Source: Chloroflexi bacterium UBA2235 (GTDB lineage Bacteria > Chloroflexota > UBA11872 > UBA12225). Taken from it: a stretch of 32,973 nucleotides of DNA. Below are positions 1,445 through 28,230 of this stretch, piece after piece. The position numbers were made by a program, and so were the translations under genes. The notes below the pieces were generated by a model, which was not told the DNA's origin, ran no database searches, and saw only the letters and a program-made list of their open reading frames with translations. The stretch is from the NCBI GenBank assembly GCA_002347925.1, contig DDYL01000108.1, positions 11,416 through 44,388 on the forward strand, in the 5' to 3' direction. Positions within the stretch are counted from its first letter, which is position 1. Each line of letters begins with the position of its first letter.

Positions 1445-2992
1445 GTGAGATCGGTGTCTTTCCTCCTCAACGGCGAATTCGTTGATCTAGAGGGAACGGA
1501 TCCTCACGTCACCCTTCTTGACCTCGTGCGCGACCGTGGACTGACCGGCACAAAGGAGGGATGCGCGGAGGGTGACTGCGGTGCCTGCACCGTCGTTGTC
1601 CGGGAACCCACCCCATCACCCCATCGCCCCTTGATTGAGACACGCCTGGACCCGCCGCCGCTCCCGGCAAAAGACTCAGAGCGTCCGTCGGTCTACCGGG
1701 CGATCAACGGCTGCCTCGCGTTGGCCGCGCAGTTGCCGGGTACGGAAGTCTGGACGGTCGAAGGTGTCGGTGACACCGGGCACGCGGGTGGCAGGGCGGA
1801 GTCTCAGCTGCACCCGGTCCAGGAGGCAATCGCTACCACTGGCGGTTCGCAATGCGGGTTCTGCACCCCCGGATTCGTGATGACGATGTTCGCGTCGTAT
1901 TACTCACCACTGGTCACGGACGCACAGTCTGTCGACCCAGGTGGCGAAGTTCTCGCGGGGAACTTGTGTCGGTGCACGGGATATCGCGCATTGCGCTCGG
2001 TGGCCGCACTGACGTCTGGTGCCGGCCTCGTTGAGGGTTCGGAGCACGCAGACCGTTTCGCGAGTCGTTTGCATGATCCAGTCCCGGGTGCGGTGCCGGC
2101 CGAATTGGGTTCGGCAGTCGTGGCGTATCGACCATCAACGCTAGCCGAAGCGATTGCCCGCCGCGCCAGTGAACCCGGTCTGCGGGTGATTGCCGGGGCG
2201 ACCGACGTGGGAGTTGAAGTCACCCGCGGGTTCAAAAGGTATCCGGGCATTCTTTCGTTGGACGCCATCACCGACCCAATCTTCTCGAGCTGCTCACGTG
2301 CAGAAGGGACCGTCACGATTGGCGCCGGCGTAACCATGACCGCCCTGGAAGACTTCCTCCGCGATGGCGGGGTGCCATTGGCTGGGCAAATGCTGCCATG
2401 GTTCGCTTCGCGCCAGATCAGGAACCGCGCGACGGTCGGTGGCAATTTGATGACGGCATCGCCGATTGGTGACATGTCTCCAGTCTGGCTCGCACATGAT
2501 GCGGTTGCGTTGATTGGTGGATTGTCGGGAATCCGCGAAGTCAGGGTGGCGGATTTCTTCACGGGCTATCGACAGACGGCGGTCGGTGCGGACGAACTTC
2601 TGGTTGCGCTGCGGATTGACGACAGCGTGGCACCTCCACGTGGGCGGCGCGTCGCGTGGGTGCGGAAGGTTGCCCGCCGGGATCGGGTAGATATTTCGGC
2701 GGTGGCCGGGGCGTTCCTTGTGGTACTCGATGACCGTGGGACGGTCGTTTCGGCGCGCCTTGCGTATGGAGGGGTTGCGGCGACCCCGGTGCGTGCGTTG
2801 GGTGCCGAAGACGCGCTGATCGGAGCGGTGTGGCGCGCCGGTGATGGCGGTGTCAGGGATGCCCGTGCCCTACTGGGATCGGCATTCGCGCCGCTCTCTG
2901 ACCACCGGGGGTCGGCGTCTTATCGGCAGCGCCTCATTACCGGCCTGTTCGATGCATGCCTCTCCGAGACGGGAATTGGAAGCGACCGGTGA
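1445..2992 (+). CDS. xdhA: xanthine dehydrogenase small subunit (2Fe-2S + FAD-binding)
   Basis: GTG 1445 lies 6 nt after GGAGGG (1433-1438). Signatures: CAEGDCGACTV and GGSQCGFCTPGF iron-sulfur motifs, NLCRCTGY, and the FAD-domain motif RNRATVGGNLMTASPIGD. The stop TGA 2990-2992 is followed 1 nt later by the xdhB ATG. Confidence 0.9.
   Translation: MRSVSFLLNGEFVDLEGTDPHVTLLDLVRDRGLTGTKEGCAEGDCGACTVVVREPTPSPHRPLIETRLDPPPLPAKDSERPSVYRAINGCLALAAQLPGTEVWTVEGVGDTGHAGGRAESQLHPVQEAIATTGGSQCGFCTPGFVMTMFASYYSPLVTDAQSVDPGGEVLAGNLCRCTGYRALRSVAALTSGAGLVEGSEHADRFASRLHDPVPGAVPAELGSAVVAYRPSTLAEAIARRASEPGLRVIAGATDVGVEVTRGFKRYPGILSLDAITDPIFSSCSRAEGTVTIGAGVTMTALEDFLRDGGVPLAGQMLPWFASRQIRNRATVGGNLMTASPIGDMSPVWLAHDAVALIGGLSGIREVRVADFFTGYRQTAVGADELLVALRIDDSVAPPRGRRVAWVRKVARRDRVDISAVAGAFLVVLDDRGTVVSARLAYGGVAATPVRALGAEDALIGAVWRAGDGGVRDARALLGSAFAPLSDHRGSASYRQRLITGLFDACLSETGIGSDR
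1607..1638 (+). repeat. copy of C-rich interspersed repeat (form 1), inside xdhA, in frame
   Basis: CCCACCCCAT-CACCCCATCGCCCCTTGATTGA. It shares CACCCCATCGCCCC plus TGATTG with copies at 5452-5473, 7154-7173 and 21004-21025. Confidence 0.7.
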
Positions 2993-5348: not shown

Positions 5349-5402
5349 GTCTGTTGCCCTCTCGAACGGGGTTGTGGGCGCGAACGCTAGTCCCCGCTGG
5401 TC

Positions 5403-5527
5403 CACCCCACCCCACCTGATCGCCTCAGATTGCAAGGCGCTTTGCTTCGCCCACCCCATCGCCCCTGATTGCAGTCAGCTTCTTGGCTCTCCCCATTGGC
5501 TCACTTGGTTCGAATGCGATCCGCATC
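5403..5527. repeat. small tandem array of the C-rich interspersed repeat in the convergent xdhB/GT4 spacer
   Basis: Form 2-like CACCCCACCTGATCGCCTCAGATTGCAA (5408-5435), form 1 CACCCCATCGCCCCTGATTGCA (5452-5473), and degenerate CTCACTTGGTTCGAATGCGAT (5500-5520). Unit spacing is about 45-50 nt. The layout parallels 7154-7218. Confidence 0.7.
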
Positions 5528-5569: not shown

Positions 5570-6883
5570 TCAGCGGTCGCGGCGGGCAAGCGCGGCGAGG
5601 TATGCCCGTTCGGCGGCTGGCGCAAGGGTGTCCCAACCGAAGTGATCCCGGGCGCGGTTGCGCGCTTGTTCACCCAGTGACTGACGCAAGTCGGGTTCAG
5701 TGAGGCACCTGATCACGGCTTTCGCCATGGCGTCGGTGTTTCCCGGCGCAACGAGGATCCCGGAGACACTCGGAACGATGTAGTTCGATTGCTCGCCGGT
5801 TGCGTCGGCGATCACGGGAATCCCGAGTCGCAGGAGTTGCAGCAACTTGACCGAACACTTGGCGCGATTGGCGAGGTTGTCGTCGGCGAGAGCAATGGCG
5901 ACGTCTGCAAGTGACAGGAGTTCTGGAAGTGCGTCAGGCCGTTGCCAGCCCGCCAGGTGCACCGCACCGGTCAAGCCTCGCGACCTTGCTTCCGTTGCGA
6001 GATCCCGCTCCTGATTGAACTTGCCGGCCCCGACGACAAGGAGCATGGCGTCGGGAACGTCTTTCCGGATGGTTATCAGGGTTTCGAAGGCTCGGCTGGG
6101 TGAGAACTCGAAGAAGCGCGTATAGAGCAGGACGATTGGCCCCGGCCCGATGCCAAGGCGTGCGCGGATCGGCTCGCTGCCGGGCTTTGAGGCACCGCCG
6201 GGCACGTACTCAGGTCCACCCTGCCCCACCTGATCCGAGTGCGCTTCTCTTGGCCACCAGTTTGGGTAGTCGCGATCGTCCAGTCCGTTCGGGAGGTACT
6301 CGACACTATGGGTGGGTTGGCCGAAACTCCATGCCTGCGCCTGGAGCGTTCGGCTGGCGACGGTGACGGCGTCGGCATTCGCAATGCCCCATCGTTCTTG
6401 CACGTTGACGATTTGTCTCTGCCACCACGGATAGGCTTCGTAGTCGTTCCATCCACCGTCCCCTTCCCAGTCGTCGGTATCTACGACGATTGCCGGTGGG
6501 CGTGCTGGGTAGCCAACCCATTGTCGGCCCCTCAACGCGAGGTGGGTAAGCCCAGTGACCGCCTTTGGCTTGAACAGGTGAACGACGTCGGGGAGACTTG
6601 CGATGGCGGCGCGGGCGGTTTGCAAGGCGAGGATGGGCTGGGCAAGGGCCTGGAGCGGACTTGCCTCGGAGACGCGCCCTGGAACACGCATCGACTGGAT
6701 GCGGACGCCATCGGTGATCTCATCACGCCCACCCTCGGCGGGATTGTCGTAGGGTGGAATGATCACGGTGACGGTGTGCCCACGCGACGCAAGTGCGCGC
6801 GCAAGCGGGATGGTGCGGGCACTGGATGTTGCCTTCGGTTGACGGGCGAACGGCGCCACCAACGTCACACGCAGTCGCGGCAT
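5570..6883 (-). CDS. glycosyltransferase family 4 (GT-B fold)
   Basis: ORF 5570..6895. The N-terminus (M)PRLRVTLVAPFARQPKATSSARTIPLARALASRGHTVTVI and the C-terminal half RARLGIGPGPIVLLYTRF...VVGAGK...GIPVIA are typical of GT4. The start is either ATG 6883 or GTG 6895; the latter overlaps the upstream stop as GTGA. Confidence 0.8.
   Translation of the reverse strand: MPRLRVTLVAPFARQPKATSSARTIPLARALASRGHTVTVIIPPYDNPAEGGRDEITDGVRIQSMRVPGRVSEASPLQALAQPILALQTARAAIASLPDVVHLFKPKAVTGLTHLALRGRQWVGYPARPPAIVVDTDDWEGDGGWNDYEAYPWWQRQIVNVQERWGIANADAVTVASRTLQAQAWSFGQPTHSVEYLPNGLDDRDYPNWWPREAHSDQVGQGGPEYVPGGASKPGSEPIRARLGIGPGPIVLLYTRFFEFSPSRAFETLITIRKDVPDAMLLVVGAGKFNQERDLATEARSRGLTGAVHLAGWQRPDALPELLSLADVAIALADDNLANRAKCSVKLLQLLRLGIPVIADATGEQSNYIVPSVSGILVAPGNTDAMAKAVIRCLTEPDLRQSLGEQARNRARDHFGWDTLAPAAERAYLAALARRDR
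6224..6246 (+). repeat. copy of C-rich interspersed repeat (form 2), inside the GT4 gene (antisense to coding strand)
   Basis: CCCCACCTGATCCGAGTGCGCTT versus 7196-7218 CCCCACCTGATTCGACTGCGTT: 11 nt exact, then 9 of the next 12 positions match. Confidence 0.55.
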
Positions 6884-6891
6884 GGTCCGGG

Positions 6892-9800
6892 TCACGACAC
6901 GTGTCCGTCCTGGCCCGACGGCGGAACGTTCCGACGATGGCTCCGACCATCCCAGAGGGTCTCACGTGCGACCTCTGGATCATCCGTCGATGCAATGAAG
7001 AGGGCGGTTTGTTGAGTGTCGTCGTCGAGGATGCGCTTGGTTGCGACATCTTGGCCTGACGGGTGGTTCTGGGGAATTGCGTCGGGGTCCACGGGCCCCG
7101 GCGGTCGGTCCGCTGGCACGGTCGGCACAGGCAGGTGGTTGGCTCCGCCCCGTCCAATCGCCCCTGATTGCAATACGTTCGCGTTGGCCTGCCTCACCCC
7201 ACCTGATTCGACTGCGTTGCGTCCGGCCGGCCCCACCCGGTGAAGCTGGCCTTCACGCGGTCCAGACAGTGGACGTGATGGAGGCCATTGGCGGCGGGAG
7301 GTGGCCGTCCAAGGAACCACCATGATCACGACTGCGAGGAGTGCGGCGACGACGGAAATGGTGAACCCTGCTTCGGCGCTGGCTTGACGGAAACGCATTT
7401 CCACAACGTGCTGACCCGCAGGGACTGGGATTGCACGGAATAGGACATCGGCGCGCCAGACCGGCGCGTCACGTCCGTCTATGGTTGCGGTCCATCCAGC
7501 GAAAAACGAATCCCGAACCGTGAGGATTGCCTGCACGGGTGTGTCTACGCGGATCCTCAGGTACTCGGCGGATTCGGCTTCAATGACGACGGCGTCGTCT
7601 GAAAAGGTTATTCCGGGCGTGAGCGTCGTGTTGGCAATGCTTTCCTGCTCGGCGGGGGAGAGGTATCCCGCATAGGCGTTACGTCCAAGGAACTGCCAGA
7701 CGGCGTCCCTCCAGGGTCGGAGACGGGTTCGCCAAGCCGGTTCGTCAGGATCGCTCACGGGTGCCGTCTCGAGCACGACGCTGTCATCGCCCTCTGGTGC
7801 ATCGCGCAGGTAGTTGAGTGCCTCGGCGGCTGATGGTCGAGTGACCGCTCTGGGAAGAAGTCGGACACGCGGCGGAGGCTCGAGGAGGCGGTAGACCTTG
7901 ACATCAGACCGATGCACCAGTTGCACTCCGCCACCGTGGATGAGGCTAGCCGGCCACGACTGGCCATCACCAATCGCCGAGAGTGCGTGAAGCGTCGACC
8001 CTTGGGTGTCGGTTGCGAGCGTTCCTGTCGCTTCGCGGGTGACCGTAAAGGACGCGATGGTGGTGTCTTGGTTGACCGATACGGGAATCCGGACAAGGTA
8101 CGTGGTGGGCTTGGCAGGGTCTGTACCGGGCAACGGTGTGACCGTGGCAGTTTGGGCGGAGGTGCCACTCGTCCCTGATCCGACCGTGAACCGTCCGGTC
8201 CACAGTGGTGCATCGCTGGCGTCGCGTGCCGTGATGATCAAGGTCGCGATCCCGAGCTCGCTGGTCGCGTTGGACACGATCATTCCGATCGCCCGCACGT
8301 CACGCATACGCGGCCCGGGGGCGTCAGGTCCGACAAGCGAGGCGGTGAGGGATGCGGGCGCCGAACCTTGGGGAAGGTCGGCGCGTGCCAGGACCGACGG
8401 GAGGGCGAGGACTGGTGCCGGGATGGTCACCGGCATGCCCGCGCGCACGATGAGTGAAGCGTCGGAGTCGTAGTAGTCGCCGTCGATTTGCCGGTCGTCG
8501 ATCGTGTCGCGCAGGAGGTAGGTGACGCCCCACTGGCGCAGGCGGCTCAGTGACGGCAAGTTTGGAACCAGGTCCCGACTGAGTTGGTCGCGCAAGAGGC
8601 CATCAGGCTGGTTGCGTTCGGGCGGAACGATGAGTGACTTGAAGTCGACGTAGCGTCGGAAAGGAAGCACGCCACCGTCGTAGCCATCCACGACGGGAAT
8701 CTTGAACACCATTGGGAGATTGGGGTTGAGCGTGTCCTTGTACTTGGTGTTGATGAGGCCGGCCCCGACGCCTCGCAGGCCAAGCAGTGCCCCGTGGTCG
8801 CCCTGGATAAGCGGTGCATCGTAGGGTTGGTACCCGGTGCGTGCCACTGCAAGGACACGACCGGGGGGAAGGTTGTCCCGCAGGGCATCAATGACGGGGC
8901 GGCTGTCGGTATAGACGCCGGGCGGGTTTGGGTTGTTGTATTCAAGGGTGGTTGCAGATGCCCAGAGTTCGGTGATCGTGGCGACAGAGACCAGGATCGC
9001 CCCAAGGCGTGACGGTGCCGTTGCGAGGGCGATGAATGTCAGGACGACCGCGCCGGTGCCAAGGGCTGCCCAGACCACGATGAGTTGTGGTGCGGTTTCC
9101 TGGGAACGGACGTGCTGGGCTGGCCACAACAGGGTCGCAGCACCGCTCGCGACGAGAACGGCGATGAGCAGTCGGCTTGCGGCGATGAGCCGGTACCACG
9201 GACGTGGCGCCGCGGCACCGTGGTGGTCTGGGCCAGGTGACTTCAGGAATGAGAAGCCGGCGCCGGCGACAATCGAACCCGCGAAGGTTGTGAGAAAGAG
9301 CCATCTGGCCGGCACGCGGAAAAGGTTCATTCCCGGCAACGCAAAGATCCGCGAGTAGATGGGCGTGTGATTTCCGAGGGCGAGTAGGAGTGAGACAAGC
9401 CCAAGGAGTGTGAAAAAGAGGATCGCCGGGTGGCGGGCGCGGAATGTTACGCCGCAGAGCGCCAGGATGAACCCCATGAACCCGAGCCATCCTAGGTACT
9501 CATTGCTGGTGGGAGTGGCCAATCCGAAGGTAGGCAGCAACCCGACAAAGAGTTCCCTTGGCGGAAGTGAGAAGGCGACGGCCTCGCCCAACGGCATGCC
9601 GGCCGCGCGTATCGAAGCTGCCGTCAATTCGGTGGTTGGCAGTGTCTGCATGGCACTGAGACCAGCGGCGATGGCTCCGGACAACCCCAGAAGGCCGGTT
9701 GTCCATGCTGCGTGCCGGAGAGCGATGCGACGCCGGACCCATTCGGTGGAGCCGCCTGGGTGTCCCGGGTGGGTCGCTGTGGTGCCCTCCGTGCCGTTCC

Positions 9801-10515
9801 GGGATCGTTCGGCGAGCATCGCCCTGACCCAGGTGCCGAGCGGATCTCGTGTCGGCGCGCGCACGGGAAGGGCGAGGGTCCACCCAGTGACGCCGATTCT
9901 GAAAATCGCATAGGCGCCTATCGCGACGACGGTCATGTAGCTCTCTTGGGCATGCCCGGCAAGTAACTGGATTGCGAGGACGACACCGGTTGCCACGGCC
10001 CACCGGAGCGAGTGGCTTTCGAGTGCGTAGTGCAGCGTGAGGCACGCGAGGGGCAGCCAGGCCGCAGCATTGAGTTGGTTGAGGTGACCGACTTGGGCGC
10101 CGATGAACCCGGAAAACCCGTACAGGCAACCGGCAATTCCGGCACTCCACCAATCGAGATCAGCCATTCCCCGCGCAGCAAGGGCGGCGAACCATGCGGC
10201 GAGGAAGAAGTGCACCGCAACCGATGCGTTCATGGCGAAGGGGGCGGGAAGCACCAGGAACAGGACGTGCAAGGGATAGAAGACTGCACTCTGGAGGTTG
10301 GAGAGGAAGGGAACTCCGAAGTAGATCCACGGGTTCCAGAGGGGGATTCGACCATCGCGCAATGCTTCGGCGGCGAATGCCCGGTACGGGTACATGTAGG
10401 CCATCGTGTCGTACCCGATCACGACGAGGCCGGTGAAGATGAGCTTCCAGGCGAAGAGGAGCGTGGCGGCGAGGATGGTCAGCGCAAGCGCCACTGGTGC
10501 GACGTGTCGGCGCAT
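6892..10515 (-). CDS. YfhO-like polytopic membrane glycosyltransferase (GT-C type) with long C-terminal tail
   Basis: ORF 6892..10650. ATG 10515 (MRRHVAPVALALTILAATLLF) starts the first TM helix. About 12 or more hydrophobic segments are followed by a large extracytoplasmic domain. The typical YfhO C-terminal module is present (DSFFAGWTATIDGRDAPVWRADVLFRAIPVPAGQHVVEMRF), followed by a final TM helix. Confidence 0.8.
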   Translation of the reverse strand: MRRHVAPVALALTILAATLLFAWKLIFTGLVVIGYDTMAYMYPYRAFAAEALRDGRIPLWNPWIYFGVPFLSNLQSAVFYPLHVLFLVLPAPFAMNASVAVHFFLAAWFAALAARGMADLDWWSAGIAGCLYGFSGFIGAQVGHLNQLNAAAWLPLACLTLHYALESHSLRWAVATGVVLAIQLLAGHAQESYMTVVAIGAYAIFRIGVTGWTLALPVRAPTRDPLGTWVRAMLAERSRNGTEGTTATHPGHPGGSTEWVRRRIALRHAAWTTGLLGLSGAIAAGLSAMQTLPTTELTAASIRAAGMPLGEAVAFSLPPRELFVGLLPTFGLATPTSNEYLGWLGFMGFILALCGVTFRARHPAILFFTLLGLVSLLLALGNHTPIYSRIFALPGMNLFRVPARWLFLTTFAGSIVAGAGFSFLKSPGPDHHGAAAPRPWYRLIAASRLLIAVLVASGAATLLWPAQHVRSQETAPQLIVVWAALGTGAVVLTFIALATAPSRLGAILVSVATITELWASATTLEYNNPNPPGVYTDSRPVIDALRDNLPPGRVLAVARTGYQPYDAPLIQGDHGALLGLRGVGAGLINTKYKDTLNPNLPMVFKIPVVDGYDGGVLPFRRYVDFKSLIVPPERNQPDGLLRDQLSRDLVPNLPSLSRLRQWGVTYLLRDTIDDRQIDGDYYDSDASLIVRAGMPVTIPAPVLALPSVLARADLPQGSAPASLTASLVGPDAPGPRMRDVRAIGMIVSNATSELGIATLIITARDASDAPLWTGRFTVGSGTSGTSAQTATVTPLPGTDPAKPTTYLVRIPVSVNQDTTIASFTVTREATGTLATDTQGSTLHALSAIGDGQSWPASLIHGGGVQLVHRSDVKVYRLLEPPPRVRLLPRAVTRPSAAEALNYLRDAPEGDDSVVLETAPVSDPDEPAWRTRLRPWRDAVWQFLGRNAYAGYLSPAEQESIANTTLTPGITFSDDAVVIEAESAEYLRIRVDTPVQAILTVRDSFFAGWTATIDGRDAPVWRADVLFRAIPVPAGQHVVEMRFRQASAEAGFTISVVAALLAVVIMVVPWTATSRRQWPPSRPLSGPREGQLHRVGPAGRNAVESGGVRQANANVLQSGAIGRGGANHLPVPTVPADRPPGPVDPDAIPQNHPSGQDVATKRILDDDTQQTALFIASTDDPEVARETLWDGRSHRRNVPPSGQDGHVS
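7154..7218 (+). repeat. two adjacent copies of the C-rich interspersed repeat inside the YfhO tail-coding region
   Basis: Form 1 CCAATCGCCCCTGATTGCAA (7154-7173) has 16 nt identical to 5458-5473. Form 2 is CACCCCACCTGATTCGACTGCGTT (7195-7218). Confidence 0.7.
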
Positions 10516-10711
10516 GTTCGTCACCAGTAGTTGAACGCGTGTGCGTGTGGTGCGTGGCGGTTGACCGCGTGGGCGAGATGGTGGTTTCGCGCAATGCGAT
10601 GCGGGCGGGGATGCCTGCGGACCGGCGGGCGGGCGGGTCCCCCGAAGCATTCCGGTTCGGGCATGGGTGCGTGCGCACCGTGTTGGTCCGTACAGACCGT
10701 GAGGTGCTGGA

Positions 10712-12228: not shown

Positions 12229-12305
12229 TGGTCGGGGAGAGAGGACTTGAACCTCCGACCTCAGCGTCCCGAACGCTGCGCGCTACCAGGCTGCGCCACT
12301 CCCCG
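12229..12305 (-). tRNA. tRNA-Pro (anticodon CGG), CCA encoded
   Basis: The reverse complement folds as a canonical 77-nt cloverleaf. Acceptor CGGGGAG/CTCCCCG, D arm GCGC-AGCCTGGTA-GCGC, anticodon arm CAGCG-TTCGGGA-CGCTG, variable loop AGGTC, T arm GGAGG-TTCAAGT-CCTCT, discriminator A, then CCA. Confidence 0.95.
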
Positions 12306-12342
12306 TATTGCGCCGGTGGGACCGGACGCCACCTCCGATGGA

Positions 12343-12394
12343 TTGCGCCATCAGCGTGTCATCGACTATAGGTCGCTGATGGGTCGGGCGTCAA
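12343..12394. promoter_or_regulatory. candidate overlapping divergent promoters sharing one -10 region
   Basis: Plus strand: TTGCGC (12343-12348), 18 nt, TATAGG (12367-12372), then 6 nt to ATG 12379. Minus strand: TTGACG (12394-12389), 18 nt, TATAGT (12370-12365), about 55 nt upstream of the tRNA-Pro 5' end. Confidence 0.4.
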
Positions 12395-13479
12395 GCGCTC
12401 TTGCTTCGGGTTTGGGTGTAGGACGGGTTCCGACAGCAGGAACTTGGTCGCGCGGTGGACTGCTCGCCGGGGTAGCCAGCCTCCTTGCACTCGCGTCGTG
12501 CGAGTTCGGCGGTATCGGCTCTCTTGGGTTTGGAGGATCCGATGGTGAACCGCGCCTGATCTTTGGGTCTGAAGGCAATCTCGTCCAGTTGTCGGCAGAT
12601 GGGCGGTCCCGGAAGGTCATTCTCGCGGTGCCGTCAGGCGCGGTGGCGCGGGACCCCGCATGGTCGCCCGACGGCAAGCAAGTTGTCTACGCGTACACGC
12701 CGCCCCTCAACGTCTCGCGTGGGGCGTCGCCGGCGCTGATGCTGCCGGTGACCGATCTCAACCTCCTGGATGTCGCAACGGGATCCACGCGCCAACTTCT
12801 CGTGCATGATCGTGAGGGTGGCGCCTACGACCGTCCGACTTGGTCGCCGGATGGACGGACGATCTACGCGAATCACGTTGCGCCAATCCTTGATGGATCG
12901 GTTGTGCGCGACACCATCGAGGAAGTCGTTCGCATTGCCGTTGGATCGGGACTGGCGACCCCAGAGGTTGTGGTGCGGAAGGGCTTTGACGCGGCGCTGT
13001 CCCCGGATGGTCGCTATCTGGCATGGGTTAGACGAACCATCGACGGGCGCGCCATTGAGGTGGGGGAAAATGATGGGCTAGGTGCACGCACGGTGGTCTC
13101 ACCCACATTGGCGGACAACGCATCGTGGCCGCGGTTTTCGCGTGATGGAAGCAAACTGGTCTTCTCGGCGGCGAGTCCGTTCACGCCGGTGCCTACGGTA
13201 ACTCCACTGCCCCGGCGCGCCTGGCTGGGTGCAAGGGTTGCCTCGGCGCGTGGGCGGGCGCACGGGGTGCCGATGGACCTGTTTGCGGTTGGGGTGGATG
13301 GCACCGGGTTCAGTCGACTTACGACCTTGGGCGAGGACAGTCCGTCGGCTTCGTGGTCACCGGACGGAACCAGGCTTGCCCTCGTGTCAGGTGGCGGGAT
13401 TTACGTCCTCACCCCATCGTCCAACGACCTCCGGGTAGTCGATGCCGCTGGTGGACACGGGGCCATCGACTGGCGGTGA
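12379..13479 (+). CDS. TolB-like / PD40 beta-propeller repeat lipoprotein
   Basis: ORF 12247..13479, whose 5' part overlaps the tRNA. ATG 12379 gives a signal peptide with a lipobox (LLALASC). WSPDG-type blades repeat: [50 protein letters not shown]. Confidence 0.8.
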
Positions 13480-13494
13480 CGTGGGGAATCCGGG

Positions 13495-13517
13495 TTGCGA
13501 TCAGGGCCGATGTGGGG
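13495..13517 (-). repeat. copy of C-rich interspersed repeat (form 1), reverse orientation, intergenic
   Basis: The plus strand reads TTGCGATCAGGGCCGATGTGGGG, against the reverse complement of the core TGCAATCAGGGGCGAT-GGGGTG. Confidence 0.5.
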
Positions 13518-20166: not shown

Positions 20167-20964
20167 TCAGTGGTTGCTGGTTCGCCTTGGCCCTTGCAAT
20201 CTGTCGAGGCTGATCCCAAGGATCACGGCGAGGGCCCCCGGTGCGAAGTCCCCAAGGACGAAGAAGAACAGGCCAATGAGCATCACGAGGATGCCGAGGC
20301 ACCGTGCAAGGCTACGTGAGACTGTCAGGGCGGTCTCAAAGCGACCGGTCAGCCTCCAGGTGATCGCTTCAATGACGAAGCCTCCGTCAAGCGGAGGGAC
20401 AGGCAAGAGGTTGATGGCTCCGGCCAGCGCGTTGATGCACGCGGCATCCGTCAGTGCCAAGGCGAACCCGTGAGCGAGGGTCGGGTCGGTCCCGGTGACT
20501 GGCGTGATGGAAAGTGCAGCTGCTTGCCAACCAAGGAAGAGGCGATTTCCCGTTGAAGGGTCAAGCAGGTCTGCCAAGGTCCAGAACACGACCGCAACGA
20601 CCGCGTTGAGTGTTGGACCCGCGAGGGCGGTGAGAGCGACGCCGCGGGGGCCAAGCGCGCGCGCATCGGTTGTCATCGCCCCCCCGGCCAGGGCGAACCT
20701 GAACAGGACTGCACGGGCACCGAGGGCGCGAGCGGCCATGGCGTGCGACGCCTCGTGGCCAACAAGTGACGTGCCGACGAGCAGGGCAGTCAGGACAGCG
20801 GTTGCCCAGACTGCGCTATCTGGCCATTCCGGACGTACCGAAGGTACCCGCTGGATGCCGAGGGCCGCGATGAGGGCCAGGATGGTGATGATCCAGGTCC
20901 AGTGCACCTGGATGCGGAACCTCAACCCACCCCATCTCTTCCGGCGTTGAGACGCTTCGCTCAT
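20167..20964 (-). CDS. site-2 protease (peptidase M50) family membrane metalloprotease
   Basis: ORF 20167..21042. Signatures: HEASH (HExxH) in a TM helix, and NLLPVPPLDGG. ATG 20964 is preferred. The longer GTG 21042 start would read through a repeat copy. Confidence 0.85.
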   Translation of the reverse strand: MSEASQRRKRWGGLRFRIQVHWTWIITILALIAALGIQRVPSVRPEWPDSAVWATAVLTALLVGTSLVGHEASHAMAARALGARAVLFRFALAGGAMTTDARALGPRGVALTALAGPTLNAVVAVVFWTLADLLDPSTGNRLFLGWQAAALSITPVTGTDPTLAHGFALALTDAACINALAGAINLLPVPPLDGGFVIEAITWRLTGRFETALTVSRSLARCLGILVMLIGLFFFVLGDFAPGALAVILGISLDRLQGPRRTSNH

Positions 20965-21003
20965 GGGTGGCCGGCGCGGAGGCTCGGACAAGGTATCAAC
21001 TGG

Positions 21004-21025
21004 CACCCCATCGCCCCTGATCGCC
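21004..21025 (+). repeat. copy of C-rich interspersed repeat (form 1), intergenic
   Basis: CACCCCATCGCCCCTGATCGCC has 18 nt identical to 5452-5469. Confidence 0.7.
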
Positions 21026-21304
21026 ACACATTTCGCCAGCACGCTTCATCGTCGAACAGTGTAGGTGGAAGCACGGCCGATGGCGTGACATCGTGACGGT
21101 GGGAGGTTCCGGGTGACGTTTGGGTGCGACCCGCGAAACCGGGGTTGCGCCGGTCGTTATCCTCTGCACGTGCGGACCGGTCGTTACGGCGACGCGGGCA
21201 CTGGGAGTGGGTTCCAAGCCTCTTCCGAGAGAGTTGGGGCGGTTGTGTCGCCCGCCCGAACGGGATGGTTTTGTTTCCCGAGTTGCCCAGATAGCGGCCG
21301 GTTG

Positions 21305-21329
21305 GTAGCGTTCTGTAGCGTGGTATCGA
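21305..21329 (+). promoter_or_regulatory. direct-repeat candidate operator upstream of the cupredoxin gene
   Basis: GTAGCGT (21305-21311) and GTAGCGT (21315-21321) have a 10-bp period. A third degenerate GTATCGA lies at 21323-21329, 42 nt upstream of ATG 21371. Confidence 0.25.
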
Positions 21330-21370
21330 ATGATGCGCGGTGATTCGGGTGCGAGTGAGGATTGCGGACG

Positions 21371-22072
21371 ATGCGACGGCCCGAGGCAAGCGTGGACAGG
21401 GTAAGGCCCTCACTGCGCAGCTGGACACTGCTGCGCGGCCTTGGCATGCTCGTACTCACGGCGTGCGCCTTGCCTGGGCTTGACCCGCTGCCGGCACGCG
21501 GAGACCCGCCATCGGGAAGTTCCACCGTTATCCTGACCGTTGGACCCGGGCCGACTCCGACTGAGGCGCAAGGACCTCAAACCAAGGATGTAGGGCAACA
21601 GGGCCCGATCCAGGCTGCTGCTGCGGTAGCGGTCACTCCATTGGCTGCCGAGGCACCTCCTCCGCCACCTCCACCCCCACCGCCGCCAGCCCCGACGGTT
21701 GCGCCGGCCGCACTTGAGGCAGCCACGGCCAATGCAGCCACCGCAATAGCCAGAGCGACGAACGTTGCCGCGACGGCTACGGCGTTGCCGGCCCAACTTG
21801 TTGTCATTAGGGGGATGGCATTCGAGCCGCCAACGCTTGCTGTGCCTCCCGGAACGGCCGTGACATTCCGGAATCTTGACAGCACCACCCATCAGATCGT
21901 CACTGGCGAGATGGATAGTGGCCGTTTGCAACCCGGCGAATCCTGGACGACAAAGTTCCAGGATGCCGCGTCGTCGCATACGTTCATCTGCCGATTGCAC
22001 CCGACCATGAAGATGGCGATCACCATCAGCGATCCGTTGAACCGAACCCCCGTGGTACGCATGAGTTCCTAG
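21371..22072 (+). CDS. cupredoxin (plastocyanin/azurin-like type 1 copper protein) lipoprotein
   Basis: ORF 21362..22072. Signal peptide with lipobox LTAC, and a long Ala/Pro linker containing 11 consecutive Pro. The C-terminal cupredoxin fold has candidate ligands H (TTHQIV) and C-x2-H-x2-M (FICRLHPTM). Confidence 0.8.
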   Translation: MRRPEASVDRVRPSLRSWTLLRGLGMLVLTACALPGLDPLPARGDPPSGSSTVILTVGPGPTPTEAQGPQTKDVGQQGPIQAAAAVAVTPLAAEAPPPPPPPPPPPAPTVAPAALEAATANAATAIARATNVAATATALPAQLVVIRGMAFEPPTLAVPPGTAVTFRNLDSTTHQIVTGEMDSGRLQPGESWTTKFQDAASSHTFICRLHPTMKMAITISDPLNRTPVVRMSS

Positions 22073-22138
22073 CAGGATCCACCACTTCCCCGCACCCCTG
22101 ATGTAGACGCGTCGATTTGTACTGGAAGGGTTGAACCG

Positions 22139-22363
22139 ATGCCGATCTACGAGTACGTCTGTGATCCGTGTGGGCGCGAGTTTGAACTCATGCGCCCGAT
22201 GAGCCAGTCTGGGGAAGGGGCGCCGTGCCCGACGTGTGGAACGTCATCACCGCGGGTCCCCTCGGTGTTCGCGAGCAAGGAGAACTACATGGTGAAGGTG
22301 CCACGTAGTCCGGCCCTCCGTGCCAAGCGTCCGTCTGAACCTGTCGATCCGGCCAGCGCCTAG
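22139..22363 (+). CDS. FmdB-family zinc-ribbon protein
   Basis: MPIYEYVCDPCGREFE...APCPTCG is the hallmark CxxC...CxxC N-terminus of the family. Confidence 0.85.
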   Translation: MPIYEYVCDPCGREFELMRPMSQSGEGAPCPTCGTSSPRVPSVFASKENYMVKVPRSPALRAKRPSEPVDPASA

Positions 22364-22385
22364 GTGTCGTTGCTCACGACATTCG

Positions 22386-23873
22386 TCACGGCTTGCCGGG
22401 GTTGAGCCATCCGTCTGCGTCGAAGACACGCTTGACAGAGGATTGCGTCGCCCGGTCTGCGGGTGACATCACCCAGTCGAGATAGGCGGCCTTCTCCAAC
22501 CCGACTCCGTGTTCGCCGGAGAGGGTGCCCCCGGCGTCGATGCAGGCCCGAAGGATCTCCTCACCGGCCTTGATGACCCGTTCGGTGAGCCCGGGAATCC
22601 GGGCGTCGTACAGGATGTTCGGGTGCAGGTTGCCGTCTCCGGCGTGGAACACGTTCGCGATCAGGAGGTTTTCGCGCTTGGCTAGGTCCTGCACTTTGGT
22701 GAGGACTTCGACAAGGCGTGACCGGGGCACGACACCGTCCTGGATGTAGTAATTCGGTGCAAGGCGACCGAGTGCCCCCAGGGCTCCCTTGCGTCCGCGC
22801 CACAGACGTTGCCGTTCTTCAACTGATGCGGCGACACGCACCTCCCGTGCGCCGTACTGCGTCAGGAGGGCTTCCACATGACTGGCGTCTTCGGCACAGG
22901 CTTCGGAGAGTCCCTCGACCTCCACGAGGAGGAGCGCCTCCACCCCCTCCGGGTACTCGGGGAACCCTCCACCACGCAGGGCACCGATGGTGACGCCATC
23001 GACAAACTCGAGCGCGGCCGGAATGATCCCCGCTTCGATGATCGCTGAGGTCGCGGCTCCGGCATCGTTGAACGTATCGAAAAGCGCCAGGACCGTCCGG
23101 ACCGTTTCCGCGCGAGGCATCAACCGGACGCACACTGCCGTCACGAAGGCGAGGGTCCCCTCGCTGCCGGTCAGGATCCCGGGAAAGTCGTATCCGGGTG
23201 CGTCCGGGGAACTTGCCATGGTCCCGCAAGACACGATGGTGCCGTCGATGAGGACTGCTTCCATGCCGAGGACATGGTTGGTAGTGACGCCGTAGGCGAG
23301 GCAATGGGGTCCACCGGCATTCTCGGCGACGTTACCGCCGATGGTCGACGCGGTCTGGCTAGAGGGGTCTGGTGCAAAGTAGAGGCCGAACGGTTCTGCG
23401 GCGCGTGTCAGGTCGACGTTCACCAGACCTGGTTCGACAATCGCACGCATGTTTTCCGCATCGATTTCGCGGATCCTGTGCATTCGTGATGTCGCAATGA
23501 CCAATCCGCCGTGGATCGGGGTCGCACCGCCTGAGAGACCGGTGCCCGCACCTCGGGGTGTGACTGGAAAGCCGTACTGGCGAGCGAGCCGAATGGCGTC
23601 CGAAACCTGGCCAGTTGTGGTTGGCAGGCAGACTGCGAGTGGTCGTGCTCTCGCCATGTAGCCGTCGCCCTCGTAACTGACGAGAGCGGCTGGCTCGGAG
23701 ACCACGGCACCAGCCCCGACGATGCCACGCAATTGGCTCAGGAAGCGAGCTCGAGTTGGTTCGTCCGGATGCGGAATTGCGCCGCCATAGGCCGTAGAAA
23801 GCGCCCCCCGCGAATGCGATGCATCCAGATCGGGTGCCAGTGTCGCCCCGGCGTCATGTTGCGAGATTCTCAT
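22386..23873 (-). CDS. FAD-binding oxidoreductase (GlcD / D-lactate dehydrogenase-like)
   Basis: ORF 22386..24092. FAD-binding PCMH-type domain (FPVTPRGAGTGLSGGA) and a C-terminal FAD-oxidase domain ending HGVGLEKAAY. The start is uncertain: ATG 23873, 23903 or 23927. The longest form would overlap the divergent gene at 24069. Confidence 0.85.
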   Translation of the reverse strand: MRISQHDAGATLAPDLDASHSRGALSTAYGGAIPHPDEPTRARFLSQLRGIVGAGAVVSEPAALVSYEGDGYMARARPLAVCLPTTTGQVSDAIRLARQYGFPVTPRGAGTGLSGGATPIHGGLVIATSRMHRIREIDAENMRAIVEPGLVNVDLTRAAEPFGLYFAPDPSSQTASTIGGNVAENAGGPHCLAYGVTTNHVLGMEAVLIDGTIVSCGTMASSPDAPGYDFPGILTGSEGTLAFVTAVCVRLMPRAETVRTVLALFDTFNDAGAATSAIIEAGIIPAALEFVDGVTIGALRGGGFPEYPEGVEALLLVEVEGLSEACAEDASHVEALLTQYGAREVRVAASVEERQRLWRGRKGALGALGRLAPNYYIQDGVVPRSRLVEVLTKVQDLAKRENLLIANVFHAGDGNLHPNILYDARIPGLTERVIKAGEEILRACIDAGGTLSGEHGVGLEKAAYLDWVMSPADRATQSSVKRVFDADGWLNPGKP

Positions 23874-24068
23874 GCTTGATTGATCCTGCCACACCCGGTC
23901 CATGCGGTGCTTGCGCGACCGCGGCATCTCTTTCAGCCGGCGCCCTTGAGGGTGGTCGCGGGGAGGTTCAGTCTGGCGTGTGCCGGTTCCAGTTGCATGA
24001 TTGGCCCGCCTACAATGGGCAGTCAGGCAGTCAGCCCCAGCAGGCCGGACAGAACGAGGACTTGAGAC

Positions 24069-24845
24069 ATGGATCTGGGACTTACGGGACATGCCGCGAT
24101 CGTGACCGGTGCGAGCCGGGGCATTGGCCGGGCAATCGCGTTGGCATTGGCATCGGCAGGATGTGACGTTGCCATCGCGGCGCGTGGATCAGAGGCACTC
24201 GAGGGTGTGGCGCGTGAGATCGAGGCGCTTGGCCGGCGGGCCCTTCCGATTTCGATCGACATGACACTGCCTGGCATGGCCGAGATGCTCGTCGCAAGGA
24301 CCGCCGAGGAGTTTGGGCGGATCGATGTCGTGGTGAACAACCTTGGGGGCAGTGCACCGGCAAACAAGCCGTTCATGGAGACCGAGCCGAAGGATTGGCG
24401 TGGTGTCATGGGCATCAACTTGTACCCCGCAATTGAGACGAGCCGGCTTGCAGTGCCTCACATCCGGAAGCAGGGCGGTGGAAGCATTGTCATCATCTCG
24501 TCCATCTACGGGCGCGAGGCGGGAGGCTATGCCGGCTACAACGTGGCGAAGTCCGCAATGAACAGCTTGGCGAAGTCCATGGCGCGTGAGTTGGCGCCTG
24601 AGGGAATTCGCGTGAACGCGGTTGCGCCGGGATCGATCATGTTCCCCGGGGGAACGTGGGAGAAGCGTCAGCAGGCCGATCCCGAGGGGATGGCCGCCTT
24701 TGTCAAGCGTGACCTCCCGTTTGGCAGGTTCGGACGTGCCGAGGAAGTTGCCGATGTGGTGGCGTTCCTTTGCTCTTCTCGCGCTTCTTGGGTGAGCGGG
24801 GCGTGTATCCCAGTCGATGGGGTTCAGGGGCGCTCGAATATCTGA
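24069..24845 (+). CDS. SDR family oxidoreductase
   Basis: MDLGLTGHAAIVTGASRGIGRA, YNVAKSAM, NAVAPG. GAGGA lies 8 nt upstream of the ATG. A TACAAT -10 candidate is at 24011-24016. Confidence 0.9.
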   Translation: MDLGLTGHAAIVTGASRGIGRAIALALASAGCDVAIAARGSEALEGVAREIEALGRRALPISIDMTLPGMAEMLVARTAEEFGRIDVVVNNLGGSAPANKPFMETEPKDWRGVMGINLYPAIETSRLAVPHIRKQGGGSIVIISSIYGREAGGYAGYNVAKSAMNSLAKSMARELAPEGIRVNAVAPGSIMFPGGTWEKRQQADPEGMAAFVKRDLPFGRFGRAEEVADVVAFLCSSRASWVSGACIPVDGVQGRSNI

Positions 24846-24957
24846 TCGCAGGATCCGCTAAAGGATCGTGGCCGTCAAAGCCTGATTTCGCCCGTGGTTG
24901 AGTTCGTTACGTTACCTGTCTTGGTGGCACGGGATATTGTGATGAGGGGGATGTCGA

Positions 24958-25407
24958 GTGACAGGCGAGGGAGTGCAGGAATGTCACTCGGCAGAACGAG
25001 TTCTGGACAGCGAGGCAGACGTTCCCGGTGACTTGGCTCAGGTAGACGTGCCACCCGTCAGTACGCCAGGCCCGACGCTCGTCCTCGCTGTCTTGGCTGA
25101 CGGACCGATGCATGGGTACGGACTCGCAAAGGAGATTGAGCGCCGTAGCGAGGGGTACTTCCACGCGCGGTGGGGCAGCCTGTATCCAACCCTGCAGCGT
25201 CTCGAGTCGCAGGGCCTCATCTCCGGCGAATGGTCGGCGCCAACTGCAGGGAGCGGACGTCGGCGACGTGTCTACCATTTGACGCCGTCTGGCAGGGCCG
25301 AGGCCAGGAAGACGGCTGGCCGATGGCGTGAGTTCGCCGAAAATCTCCTCAAGGCACTCGGGGCCGGGGGACGATCAGAAGTGATTGTCGATGGAACGCG
25401 CATCTGA
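24958..25407 (+). CDS. PadR family transcriptional regulator
   Basis: Winged-helix signature LVLAVLADGPMHGYGLAKEI...WGSLYPTLQRLESQGLISGEW...RRRVYHLTPSG. GTG 24958 follows GAGGGGG. The true start may be further in (for example GTG 25048). Confidence 0.85.
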   Translation: MTGEGVQECHSAERVLDSEADVPGDLAQVDVPPVSTPGPTLVLAVLADGPMHGYGLAKEIERRSEGYFHARWGSLYPTLQRLESQGLISGEWSAPTAGSGRRRRVYHLTPSGRAEARKTAGRWREFAENLLKALGAGGRSEVIVDGTRI

Positions 25408-25960
25408 CCGCCTCTCGGGGTGGGTTCGACGTGCTGGCCCGTCGCTTCCAGTGGAGCGGTATCTGGCCGAACTTGATGCCGTGCTGGAAGGGCAGGCCGA
25501 CACGTCGCTTGCTGTTGACGGGATTGATGCGCCCCTGAGCGGCGTGGCCCGTGCGGTCATCGTCGAGTCGATTGGTGCCGACCTCGAGGCGGCGGCCCGC
25601 GACCTGATGCTTGCCGGAGTTCCCCGGAATCAGGCCGAGATGCGTGCGATCAGCGACCTTGGTCCCGCCCCCGATTTGGGACGCGCGTTGCTTGGGGCCC
25701 GGCGTCGGCAGACGGTCATGGCGGTGGAGATGTCCGACGATCCATGGTCATGGACGGAGCCACTCCTGCAAGTCTTATTGCTGGTGGTGGCAATCGGGGT
25801 GGGCGCACTCGCTCCGGTCCTCGCCGTGATCATTGCCATCGTTGTCGAGCGCCAGTCCGGCGTGATCGCCGTGATGCTGGTTCCGGTCCTCACGGCCGTA
25901 CTGGGTAGGGCGGCCGGAGCGGTTGCGCCACCAATGGGACATGGAAATCCGGCGCGGTGA
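25391..25960 (+). CDS. PadR-associated membrane protein (DUF1700/HAAS-like N-terminus, C-terminal TM helices)
   Basis: ORF 25385..25960 overlaps the PadR stop. The N-terminal ERYLAELDAVLEG helix is typical of partner proteins encoded after PadR genes. Two C-terminal hydrophobic helices follow. Confidence 0.5.
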   Translation: MERASDRLSGWVRRAGPSLPVERYLAELDAVLEGQADTSLAVDGIDAPLSGVARAVIVESIGADLEAAARDLMLAGVPRNQAEMRAISDLGPAPDLGRALLGARRRQTVMAVEMSDDPWSWTEPLLQVLLLVVAIGVGALAPVLAVIIAIVVERQSGVIAVMLVPVLTAVLGRAAGAVAPPMGHGNPAR

Positions 25961-26003
25961 CCGTCCCATCCGCGACCCTCTGGAGTTACTTTGGCGACAA
26001 GCC

Positions 26004-26738: not shown

Positions 26739-26960
26739 CGATCTGGCCTTGGCGCGGTGGCAGGCACTACCGGACGCATGGGGTCGGTGCTATTCATGCC
26801 GGATGGTAGCGTTGGCAAACAGGTTCGGACGGTACCGAATGCTGTCAAGCCCGGTAGAATGTCGTGAAGGCACCCGGATTGGTATGGGTGCGACGTTGAT
26901 GGCGACGCCTTCATCCCGGAATGGGTGAGCGGTGACGCAAGGTTCTGGAGGAGTTCGACC

Positions 26961-27242: not shown

Positions 27243-27347
27243 CCGAATGCCGACGCTCAACAGCGTGGAAAACAGTGAGGCCCCGGACGTCCGGGCGGAT
27301 GAAACCGCTTGGGATGCCGGGGCCTCAGTGCGTTCGGTGCGCGCGTC

Positions 27348-27692: not shown

Positions 27693-27748
27693 GAACTGAA
27701 CTCCTTCCAGTCGATGGTGGCGCAGTGTCGGCGGGTCGCCGACGAGGC

Positions 27749-28057: not shown

Positions 28058-28230
28058 CTGGTCGCCCTCCGGGTCAGTACATGCGTGTCTGGATGCTCGG
28101 TTATTGGGTGGGTAGGTCAATTCTGAACGGTATTGCATCCCGCTCAGGTCGACCCGTGTGCCAAACGGTAACATTGAGGCATGGCTGGACGCGGGTGTCC
28201 AGATAGAAACTTGGGACCAAGCGGGGACTC

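Follow-up and report, generated by a model that had tools for sequence, protein, structure and literature searches.

A repeat unit of about 39 nt, probably mobile, carried in frame by xdhA in a freshwater lineage of TK10 Chloroflexota

The best-known case of selfish DNA carried in frame within housekeeping genes is that of Rickettsia, obligate intracellular bacteria with reduced genomes, and the small dispersed repeats of cyanobacteria (21-27 nt), described by Elhai et al. in 2008, are said to form clean insertions relative to orthologues with no recognisable transposase. The Rickettsia palindromic elements (RPEs; Ogata et al. 2000) are palindromic sequences of about 100-150 bp with, in the outline given in PMC10969869, one conserved peptide per family, and the MITEs (ERIC, BOX and the Anabaena MITEs) are described there as non-autonomous elements with terminal inverted repeats (TIRs) and target-site duplications (TSDs), usually longer than 100 bp and with occasional in-frame genic copies. 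REPs and REPINs, imperfect palindromes usually arranged as inverted doublets, are mobilised by RAYT transposases, which are IS200/IS605-like Y1 enzymes (PMC3116915), and MIRUs (Supply et al. 1997) are units of ~40-100 bp with no obvious palindrome which, as outlined in PMC5056196, are found at 41 loci in a genome and lie essentially between genes. In the present study we have analysed a repeat from a window of 32,973 nt (the whole stretch of DNA under analysis) of a TK10 Chloroflexota bacterium, which appears closer to MIRUs by architecture, not by homology, and closer to RPEs in behaviour.

The gene that hosts the repeat, ORF 1445-2992, is xdhA. Its product carries an N-terminal plant-type Fer2 domain followed by Fer2_2, FAD_binding_5 and CO_deh_flav_C, all four exceeding the Pfam cut-offs, and matches XdhA of R. 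capsulatus (1jro_A) with E=3.5e-65; the cysteine ligands C40, C45, C48 and C90 are invariant in the XdhA protein alignment. xdhB, coding for the molybdopterin large subunit (ORF 2841/2976-5348; Ald_Xan_dh_C, MoCoBD_1 and MoCoBD_2), comes after xdhA, and this synteny is kept in the related contigs L001-L004. By its domains and the adjacent xdhB the ORF is the XdhA small subunit. The window encodes only housekeeping genes, with no transposase-like Pfam domain among those scanned, and the sole Rfam 15 match at gathering score in the window and in contigs L018 and L026 was one tRNA (window 12232-12305).

Inside xdhA the first-pass annotation had described a C-rich core, preceded by a half copy and translated in frame, and the sequence is as it described (Table 1): CACCCCATCGCCCC at 1617-1630 and TGATTGA at 1632-1638 flank an extra T at 1631, the reading frame is intact and the stretch is translated as ...REPTPSPHRPLIETRLDPPPLPAKDSERPS... 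The ~25 extra residues that it ascribed to the repeat come down to 16 (48 nt) by comparison with the nearest orthologues, a further 5-6 extra loop residues being common to sister species that have no repeat there. It had also proposed scoring orthologues for presence or absence of the block, and the comparison gives a clean gap of exactly 48 columns in the syntenic sister-species contigs L001-L004 and in L057 (a Logan contig with the DNA of protein P0005), at 82-88% nucleotide identity; all more distant XdhA proteins aligned lack the insert as well. Within the species cluster the 16 residues are present, with conserved length, in 12 of 12 full-length proteins, and strain L040 also carries the insert, with substitutions of its own. 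The insertion was probably acquired by xdhA in an ancestor of this species of TK10 Chloroflexota. A separate insertion of 75 nt, comprising two units in reverse orientation, is found in the xdhA FAD domain of a sister species (L057/P0005).

Judged by its sequence, the segment 1611-1658 reads as one 40-nt repeat unit plus an 8-nt duplicated head, 48 nt in all, and a similar head duplication occurs at 5401-5414. The profile built from the family copies matches 1617-1645 with 22.6 bits (E=2.2e-6 within the window), with agreement at 14/14 plus 7/7 bases on the two sides of a 1-nt indel and of only ~55% between the 3' half of the unit and the family consensus. The inserted T1631, kept in strain L040, abolishes a TGA that the canonical unit would bring into the xdhA frame, as worked out from the sequence and its translation.

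Elsewhere in the window an exact copy of the 20-mer CACCCCATCGCCCCTGATTG is found at 5452, and further copies lie at 21004 (one mismatch) and 7151 (three mismatches), which makes three matches against 0.03 expected from 100 dinucleotide shuffles. The core is thus far more frequent than chance, a test that the first-pass annotation had proposed and that speaks in favour of its reading, and it represents a lineage-restricted family that is dense in some contigs. Seven of the 11 matches of a contig scan (L007-L010, L013-L015) consisted of the 20-mer only, without the 3' half, and were treated as chance. All three copies had been placed in non-coding DNA; this holds for 5449-5482 and 21004-21037, which are intergenic, but 7151-7180 lies antisense inside the C-terminal tail of YfhO, in keeping with the antisense position also claimed for the GT4 and YfhO copies. 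The first unit of the pair at 5403-5487 has an internal duplication. In GT4, assigned by its Pfam domains, the copy gives a weak profile match at 6229-6256, and the units of the YfhO tail include 7148-7180 (28.9 bits) and a short-core copy at 7195-7211, the extra sequence being visible in the protein alignment (columns 1187-1224). The copy at 13491-13512 pairs as an inverted repeat with that at 21004-21037, and the latter is also present in contig BJHB01000099.1 (L006) of a Lake Biwa TK10 MAG.

Table 1. Features of the repeat and its host gene in the window
Feature	Position	Strand	Details
xdhA, xanthine dehydrogenase small subunit (2Fe-2S and FAD)	1445..2992	+	Insertion host; Pfam and 1jro_A match
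Partial duplicate of the unit's C-rich head, CCCACCCCAT	1607..1616	+	Read from sequence
In-frame lineage-specific insertion, 48 nt = 16 codons	1611..1658	+	Encodes roughly SPHRPLIETRLDPPPL, residues about 58-73; edges ambiguous by a few nt
Repeat core within the xdhA insert	1617..1645	+	CACCCCATCGCCCC, extra T (1631), then TGATTGAGACACGC
Intergenic unit pair between convergent xdhB and GT4	5403..5487	+	Profile matches 5411-5450 and 5449-5482
39-nt block in GT4 glycosyltransferase gene, antisense	6203..6241	+	Short-core variant CCCCACCTGATCCGAGTGCGCTTC; 39-column gap vs L004
114 nt extra in C-terminal tail of YfhO ORF, antisense	7125..7258	+	About three units; gaps of 40 + 74 columns vs L004
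Weak degenerate copy just downstream of PD40-repeat gene	13491..13512	-	Profile E=0.023; uncertain
Degenerate intergenic unit	20927..20966	+	Head CCACCCCATC and tail ACGCTTCGCT kept; marginal profile match, tail only
Solo intergenic unit	21004..21037	+	1 mismatch to 20-mer; profile 22.8 bits

The family consensus, CCACCCCATCGCCCCTGATTGCAATACGCTTCGCT, was derived from 38 distinct solo copies and defines a unit of about 39 nt, sharply bounded and well conserved over 35 nt, with an information content of ~0 beyond the 35-39 nt unit. No terminal inverted repeats are present in the 38 aligned solo copies, the ends of the unit not being inverted copies of each other, and no duplicated flank was found where filled and empty sites were compared. 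One and two units of single-stranded DNA, on both strands, folded no more stably than shuffled sequences (z = +1.0 and +1.6) in a nearest-neighbour test, which cannot predict a G-quadruplex or a mini-hairpin. The G-rich strand of the unit includes GGGGCGATGGGG and GCGAAGC. Roughly nine empty sites, judged by eye, gave no consensus for a shared target sequence.

Copies are single or arranged head-to-tail in arrays of 1-5 units with a period of mostly 39 nt (range 38-40), adjacent copies being direct, with start-to-start distances of 38-44 nt and no spacers; a CRISPR array was rejected, given that the units abut with no unique spacers. Six arrays in coding sequence repeat every 39 nt and one every 41 nt, and the periods 38 and 40 were seen in intergenic arrays only. 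The family is confined to one lineage, in which up to 21 copies are found in 13 kb. In the dense contigs L018 and L026 almost every intergenic spacer holds 1-5 units; L004 has no copy of at least 20 bits in 21.5 kb where L001 has eight. A search of the literature in full text for the core sequence on either strand, and for in-frame interspersed repeats in Chloroflexi, found nothing, and the paper describing the TK10 cluster makes no mention of repeats.

The repeat is read as SPHRPLI in xdhA and as AKRIAIRGDG in XdhA of another species, and YfhO uses three antisense frames, which give AKRIGIRGDGV, SEAHFDQGRWGG and LQSGA(I/T)G; the coding copies are translated in at least four frames. The conserved entity is the DNA unit and not a peptide, in agreement with the first reading of the locus.

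Comparison of orthologues revealed no fewer than seven independent insertions, of 39 nt or a multiple of it, among xdhA, GT4 and YfhO; in-frame copies are seen in xdhA (at two independent sites, in two species), GT4 and YfhO (four sites). Six more sites, spread over GT4, YfhO and two intergenic spacers, show clean presence or absence of 39 or 78 nt, and each of the seven indels above 9 nt in the coding sequence of ada-xdhA-xdhB-GT4-YfhO consists of repeat units. New solo copies of exactly 39 nt are seeded at unrelated sites without target duplication. In the xdhB-GT4 spacer L001 and L003 have two units each, L002 three and L004 none, and L040 has there one additional 49-nt unit relative to the window. 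A one-unit difference at two loci separates the otherwise near-identical contigs L001, L002 and L003; the head-to-tail arrays thus expand and contract, probably through slippage or unequal recombination.

With genes called by our own simple gene finder, 36 of the 49 distinct sites are intergenic and 13 coding, in DNA of which 84% is coding, these density and context statistics being biased by the choice of loci for carrying the repeat. Selection probably keeps only those genic copies that are free of stops and preserve the frame, in permissive loops. The C-rich strand of the unit lies on the G-rich strand, as defined by GC skew, at 29 sites against 8 (p=7.5e-4), the skew being independent of gene orientation, and contig L026 goes against the trend with 14 of 14 copies in the minority orientation. 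After de-duplication, copies are antisense to the gene in 24 cases and sense in 12 (p=0.065); transcription was considered as the main determinant of orientation, but this bias (24:12) is weaker than that for the replication strand (29:8).

In the predicted structure of XdhA, residues 61-76 have a pLDDT <50 between the confident strands 49-55 and 82-88, and the insert sits on the tip of a β-hairpin, after the third and before the fourth of the cysteines that ligate the N-terminal [2Fe-2S] cluster. The 16-residue loop is predicted to be disordered and, from the 1jro alignment and the pLDDT, is probably surface-exposed in the XdhAB complex. In 12 strains 13 of 28 loop columns are variable, compared with 44 of 487 in the rest of XdhA (p=1e-6), and the insert differs from that of L040 at 9 of 48 nt versus about 4% overall; it evolves fast and appears to drift as a nearly unconstrained passenger. 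Part of the loop may be under some constraint, at the DNA or at the protein level, since SPHRPLI is invariant across the 12 strains.

As with RPEs (PMC10969869), we find a selfish repeat at the nucleotide level that occurs in frame in unrelated housekeeping genes, is translated and is compatible with the protein fold, and which is also intergenic and limited to one lineage. The likeness to RPEs put forward in the first-pass annotation is borne out for this behaviour but not for structure: unlike RPEs the unit is non-palindromic, of about 39 nt and with no predicted hairpin, forms direct head-to-tail tandem arrays, is read in at least four frames, has no sequence similarity to them and resides in a free-living, high-GC freshwater Chloroflexota host. 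With MIRUs (PMC5056196) it shares non-palindromic direct tandem units at many mainly intergenic loci and a copy number that is polymorphic between strains, with a 39-nt unit just under the lower size bound quoted for MIRUs; it differs from them in that about a quarter of the distinct sites are genic, some contigs have more than one copy per kb, and new solo insertions of exactly one unit distinguish sister species. MIRUs are oriented relative to neighbouring genes; the orientation bias of the TK10 repeat follows the replication strand more than transcription. Like REPs (PMC3116915) it is of the ~20-40 nt class, very abundant, mostly extragenic and devoid of target-site duplication, and movement of single strands coupled to replication, as with REPs, would be expected to leave a strand bias; in contrast to these it has no predicted fold, is arranged head-to-tail and is translated, which REPs normally are not. 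No RAYT-like gene was found in the available sequence (33 kb of this genome plus fragments chosen for carrying the repeat, the domain scan covering genes of the window). Clean insertions without a recognisable transposase recall the small repeats of cyanobacteria, a different phylum with different sequences, and in-frame genic copies recall MITEs, which differ in their TIRs, TSDs and length above 100 bp.

We consider it probable that a very short directional repeat unit of a mobile family was inserted into xdhA, where it is tolerated as a drifting passenger. In this mechanism a non-palindromic unit of ~39 nt would have inserted into the coding sequence in the ancestor of the species and would have survived by virtue of a length divisible by three, of the removal of the in-frame TGA by T1631, and of a β-hairpin tip that may accommodate a disordered 16-residue loop harmlessly, to drift thereafter with almost no constraint. 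From the lack of TIRs and TSDs, the exact length of the unit and the 29:8 strand bias we infer that the family disperses by a trans-acting, replication-coupled, single-strand copy-and-paste. Counting against our explanation, no mobilising enzyme was found among the window genes scanned, and no single-strand hairpins such as IS200/IS605 or REP elements use are predicted. More tentatively, the unit could be a new kind of ultra-small mobile element, with no inverted repeats, hairpins or target duplication and with a length divisible by three, of which a trans-acting enzyme inserts a single-stranded copy into the lagging-strand template; it would be the main source of new protein loops and tails in the TK10 freshwater Chloroflexota and would fill nearly every intergenic spacer in some species.

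It is unlikely, though the best placed of the alternatives, that the unit is in the first place a cis element with a function, spread by the host (a protein-binding site, an RNA signal of untranslated regions or a Rho/termination signal), its coding copies being by-products or acting at the DNA or RNA level. The occupation of almost every spacer in L018 and L026, the non-random orientation, the sharply delimited consensus and the invariance of the core half of the xdhA copy in 12 strains would fit such a role, but sister species differ in which orthologous spacers and genes carry it, and nothing compensates for the difference, L004 has no copy of at least 20 bits where L001 has eight, there is no Rfam match, no stable fold is predicted, and the orientation follows the replication strand better than gene direction.

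Recruitment of the 16-residue XdhA loop for a function held by protein selection, such as binding a partner or tuning the Fe-S domain, is improbable: its presence with conserved length in all 12 sampled full-length proteins and the invariant SPHRPLI speak for it, but the loop is the most variable part of XdhA, is predicted to be disordered, is missing from the sister species and from all other XdhA proteins, and derives from a DNA that gives unrelated peptides elsewhere. We give very little credit to the view that the loop grew in place from Pro-rich coding sequence, by slippage or duplication, and resembles the intergenic repeat by coincidence, since the local duplication of the head CACCCCAT and the divergent 3' half of the unit are opposed by a run of 21 core bases, broken by only one 1-nt indel, at the above profile E-value, by the exact coincidence of the core with the 48-nt indel and by the independent presence of the family in xdhA of another species and in neighbouring genes. 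That the insertion is an assembly or binning artefact from a repeat-induced mis-join can practically be dismissed, for although short repeats do break metagenome assemblies and the TK10 MAG consists of fragments (contigs some 9-21 kb long), the 515-aa protein or close variants were assembled independently from many samples and sources (a species cluster of 288 members, on contigs up to 280 kb), L040 has the insertion with its own substitutions and the reading frame is intact.

A mobile unit tolerated in xdhA, which we favour, extends RPE-like behaviour to a free-living, abundant and uncultured freshwater lineage, with an element three to four times smaller than an RPE and without any structural hallmark of the known miniature transposons. 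The insertions of exact units and the replication-strand bias point to a transposition chemistry that could be traced through genes whose occurrence follows that of the repeat from MAG to MAG. In these MAGs the repeat fragments assemblies and inflates the variation in protein length, and its arrays are good candidate strain markers, as are the MIRU-VNTR loci in mycobacteria. For the proteins of this lineage, the coding copies provide a natural experiment on the tolerance of random 13-residue loop insertions.

The repeat copy inside xdhA is carried by a gene for a xanthine dehydrogenase small subunit (Pfam Fer2, Fer2_2, FAD_binding_5 and CO_deh_flav_C), whose product matches R. capsulatus XdhA (1jro_A) with E=3.5e-65 and which is directly followed by xdhB. 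The sequence at 1603-1690 proved to be as described in the first-pass annotation and lies inside this ORF (1445-2992); a profile made from 107 copies of the family matches 1617-1645 with 22.6 bits (E=2.2e-6). In an alignment of the closest proteins, 16 residues (about SPHRPLIETRLDPPPL) are found in the window XdhA and in one 97%-identical relative, while the four next relatives (79-85% identity) are devoid of them and more distant XdhA proteins are another 5-6 residues shorter; window residues 57-84 stand opposite residues 55-58 of the 1jro chain. The syntenic loci share the order ada-xdhA-xdhB, followed on the opposite strand by GT4, YfhO and a gene for an ANTAR regulator, and the five from sister species (L001-L004 and L057) show a single clean 48-column gap opposite window 1611-1658. 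Since the block is absent from every outgroup, we regard it as a derived insertion of 16 codons, and not of the roughly 25 repeat-derived residues claimed earlier. At its 3' end, xdhA runs 17 nt (2976-2992) past the best-scoring start of xdhB in the window, in L001 and in L040, a strain of the same species; in L004 and L057 xdhB starts 1-2 nt past the xdhA stop.

Translated in the xdhA frame, a canonical unit (CCC CAT CGC CCC TGA) would terminate, whereas the window reads CCC TTG ATT; the extra T of this copy thus removes the stop and shifts translation into an open frame. Both the extra T and the 48-nt length are kept in L040, which is 96% identical overall. From its sequence, the block can be divided into a duplicated head of 8 nt and a unit of 40 nt, and the extra T would have been either present at insertion or selected later.

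Repeat copies and matches in the window and in two sister loci
Feature	Position	Remark
Half copy CCCACCCCAT	1607-1616	read from sequence
Core CACCCCATCGCCCC	1617-1630	read from sequence
Extra T	1631, then TGATTGA	read from sequence
20-mer CACCCCATCGCCCCTGATTG	5452	exact
20-mer CACCCCATCGCCCCTGATTG	21004	1 mismatch
20-mer CACCCCATCGCCCCTGATTG	7151	3 mismatches
GT4 insertion, window	6203-6241	+39 nt
YfhO tail insertion, common to window and L001-L003	window 7125-7258	+114 nt
YfhO insertion, L004 only	L004 15894-15969	+76-78 nt, two short-core variant units (CCCCACCTGATTC...)
xdhA FAD-binding domain insertion, independent, in frame	L057 3876-3950	75 nt, two units in reverse orientation

The AlphaFold model of the window XdhA (mean pLDDT 81, pTM 0.85) places the loop at a hairpin tip between the invariant Cys48 and Cys90, residues 61-76 having a pLDDT below 50 and being flanked by confident strands at 49-55 and 82-88. 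XdhA is 515 aa long in all 12 full-length members read from a species cluster of 288. Among these 12, variable columns amount to 13 of 28 in the loop versus 44 of 487 in the rest of the protein (p=1e-6), and SPHRPLI is unchanged in every one despite the variability of the loop. In nucleotide sequence, the insert differs from L040 at 9 of its 48 positions, compared with about 4% overall. This pattern fits a tolerated, weakly constrained passenger.

The 20-mer in the table has three matches in the window versus 0.03 expected from dinucleotide shuffles, and is therefore above chance there. The consensus of 38 distinct solo copies is cc|CCACCCCATCGCCCCTGATTGCAATACGCTTCGCT|tggc, with information content falling to zero beyond about 35-39 nt and with no terminal inverted repeats in these copies. 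Array start-to-start spacing is 39 nt in 39 intergenic and 6 coding cases, 38 nt in 14 and 0, 40 nt in 3 and 0, 41 nt in 0 and 1, and 44 nt in 2 and 0, respectively. Neither strand of the unit folds better than shuffled sequence under nearest-neighbour folding, which is blind to mini-hairpins and G-quadruplexes, and no Rfam family matches the repeat. The G-rich strand carries GCGAAGC, two G4 runs (GGGGCGATGGGG) and a ATTGCAAT palindrome (e.g. the window 5473-5482 region and L001 18285-18297); GCGAAGC forms an exceptionally stable DNA mini-hairpin.

Presence and absence of units were compared in the DNA from xdhB to the ANTAR regulator of the window and L001-L004, and in YfhO proteins. In L001-L003, two intergenic spacers are longer by 39 nt each, and the C-terminal tail of YfhO has a further 39 nt, encoding AKRIGIRGDGVAED. 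The conserved interior of YfhO has gained 78 or 39 nt, giving SEAHFDQGRWGG twice or once, with two units in L001 (1246 aa) and one in L003 (1233 aa). The units private to L004 add two 13-residue segments to a conserved part of YfhO, this locus having no other copy of at least 20 bits in 21.5 kb. In the xdhB/GT4 spacer, where units in L001 are in tandem 39 nt apart, their number is three in L002, two in L001, two in L003 and none in L004. The XdhA encoded by L057 bears its own 25-residue FAD-domain insertion (...GQAKRIAIRGDGARW...), at a site that in the window model falls in the loop linking helix 298-305 to helix 311-319. Comparison of the YfhO and XdhA insertions reveals that unit DNA is read in three antisense frames and one sense frame, bearing out the earlier proposal that the conserved unit is nucleotide sequence and not a protein motif. 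Coding indels of more than 9 nt number seven across ada, xdhA, xdhB, GT4 and YfhO, and every one of them consists of repeat units, versus none of the four 9-nt indels. No flank duplication was seen at any filled site compared.

The window YfhO-like membrane protein (6892-10650, minus strand) belongs to a very long type (about 1200-1250 aa), its Pfam match being confined to the last 49 positions of the YfhO model. Lengths among relatives range from 1187 to 1252 aa, largely through repeat units, and the YfhO stop and GT4 start overlap by 4 nt in all species. One antisense frame encodes an RGD tripeptide (AKRI[AG]IRGDG) in YfhO or XdhA of L001 and L057, which is probably a sequence curiosity and not a functional motif.

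Genes were called with a simple codon-usage gene finder that matched the official calls on L001. Copies of at least 20 bits are intergenic in 108 of 143 cases, in DNA that is 84% coding; collapsing overlapping contigs leaves 49 distinct sites, of which 36 are intergenic and 13 lie in coding sequence, in a sample biased by most loci having been chosen for carrying the repeat. GC skew is strong (about 0.06-0.13) in the whole window and most family loci, and marks the replication strand, because its sign is identical in plus- and minus-strand genes and coding-strand skew is 0.002; the signal is unusually clean for such short contigs. At 29 sites the unit has its C-rich strand on the G-rich strand of the replicon, versus 8 sites with the opposite orientation (p=7.5e-4), a bias stronger than that relative to genes (24 antisense versus 12 sense, p=0.065), only 54% of coding bases being on the G-rich strand. 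The metagenome contig L026 is a complete exception, all 14 of its copies of at least 20 bits having the orientation that is rarer with respect to GC skew. A strand bias would be expected if single-stranded copies of the unit were inserted at replication forks. Such insertion is established for IS200/IS605-type elements; the hairpins that these use are not predicted in the unit. Elsewhere in the window, the mechanical ORF 12247-13479 has its 5' end within a tRNA gene (12232-12305, minus strand, Rfam 62 bits), and the PD40-repeat gene probably starts at 12316.

Among species-representative genomes, one scan detected the family in just two, a Lake Baikal Chloroflexi MAG and the TK10 MAG 'Chloroflexota bacterium LBMAG_Chloroflexi_hypo.bin2_TK10', on three contigs of the latter; seven other matches, missing the 3' half, were set aside. 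Over 8 kb, window 20994-28983 has 96.2% identity to one of these TK10 contigs, which assigns the window to that Lake Biwa-type TK10 species, TK10 being a class-level lineage of the freshwater hypolimnion (PMC6169038). Metagenomes, chiefly from lakes, yielded 41 loci, in which profile searches gave as many as 21 copies in 13 kb (L018, SXGT01018231.1) and 16 in 8 kb (L026, SXGU01547909.1). These two related contigs have arrays of 1-5 units in nearly every intergenic spacer.

REP/REPIN, MITE and CRISPR architectures were tested and did not agree with the repeat. Rickettsia palindromic elements insert in frame into housekeeping genes (PMC10969869), and the likeness to them first suggested holds for this behaviour; it does not extend to their palindrome, 100-150 bp size or single encoded peptide, the architecture being instead that of mycobacterial MIRUs, dispersed non-palindromic direct tandem repeats of about 40-100 bp that lie mainly between genes and vary in copy number (PMC5056196). 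MIRUs are also described as oriented (PMC5056196). Unlike the present repeat, they are not numerous, nor are they known for inserting into coding sequence. A literature search found no paper containing the core sequence. A further analogue is the class of very small mobile repeats reportedly described in cyanobacteria by Elhai in 2008. The in-frame insertion in xdhA is real, and the original interpretation is supported with two corrections, one on the number of residues (16) and one on the architecture (MIRU-like, not palindromic). We rate the repeat as belonging to an already known kind, selfish interspersed repeats with in-frame insertion into genes, among which it stands out by its size, its density, its host and the lack of structural hallmarks.
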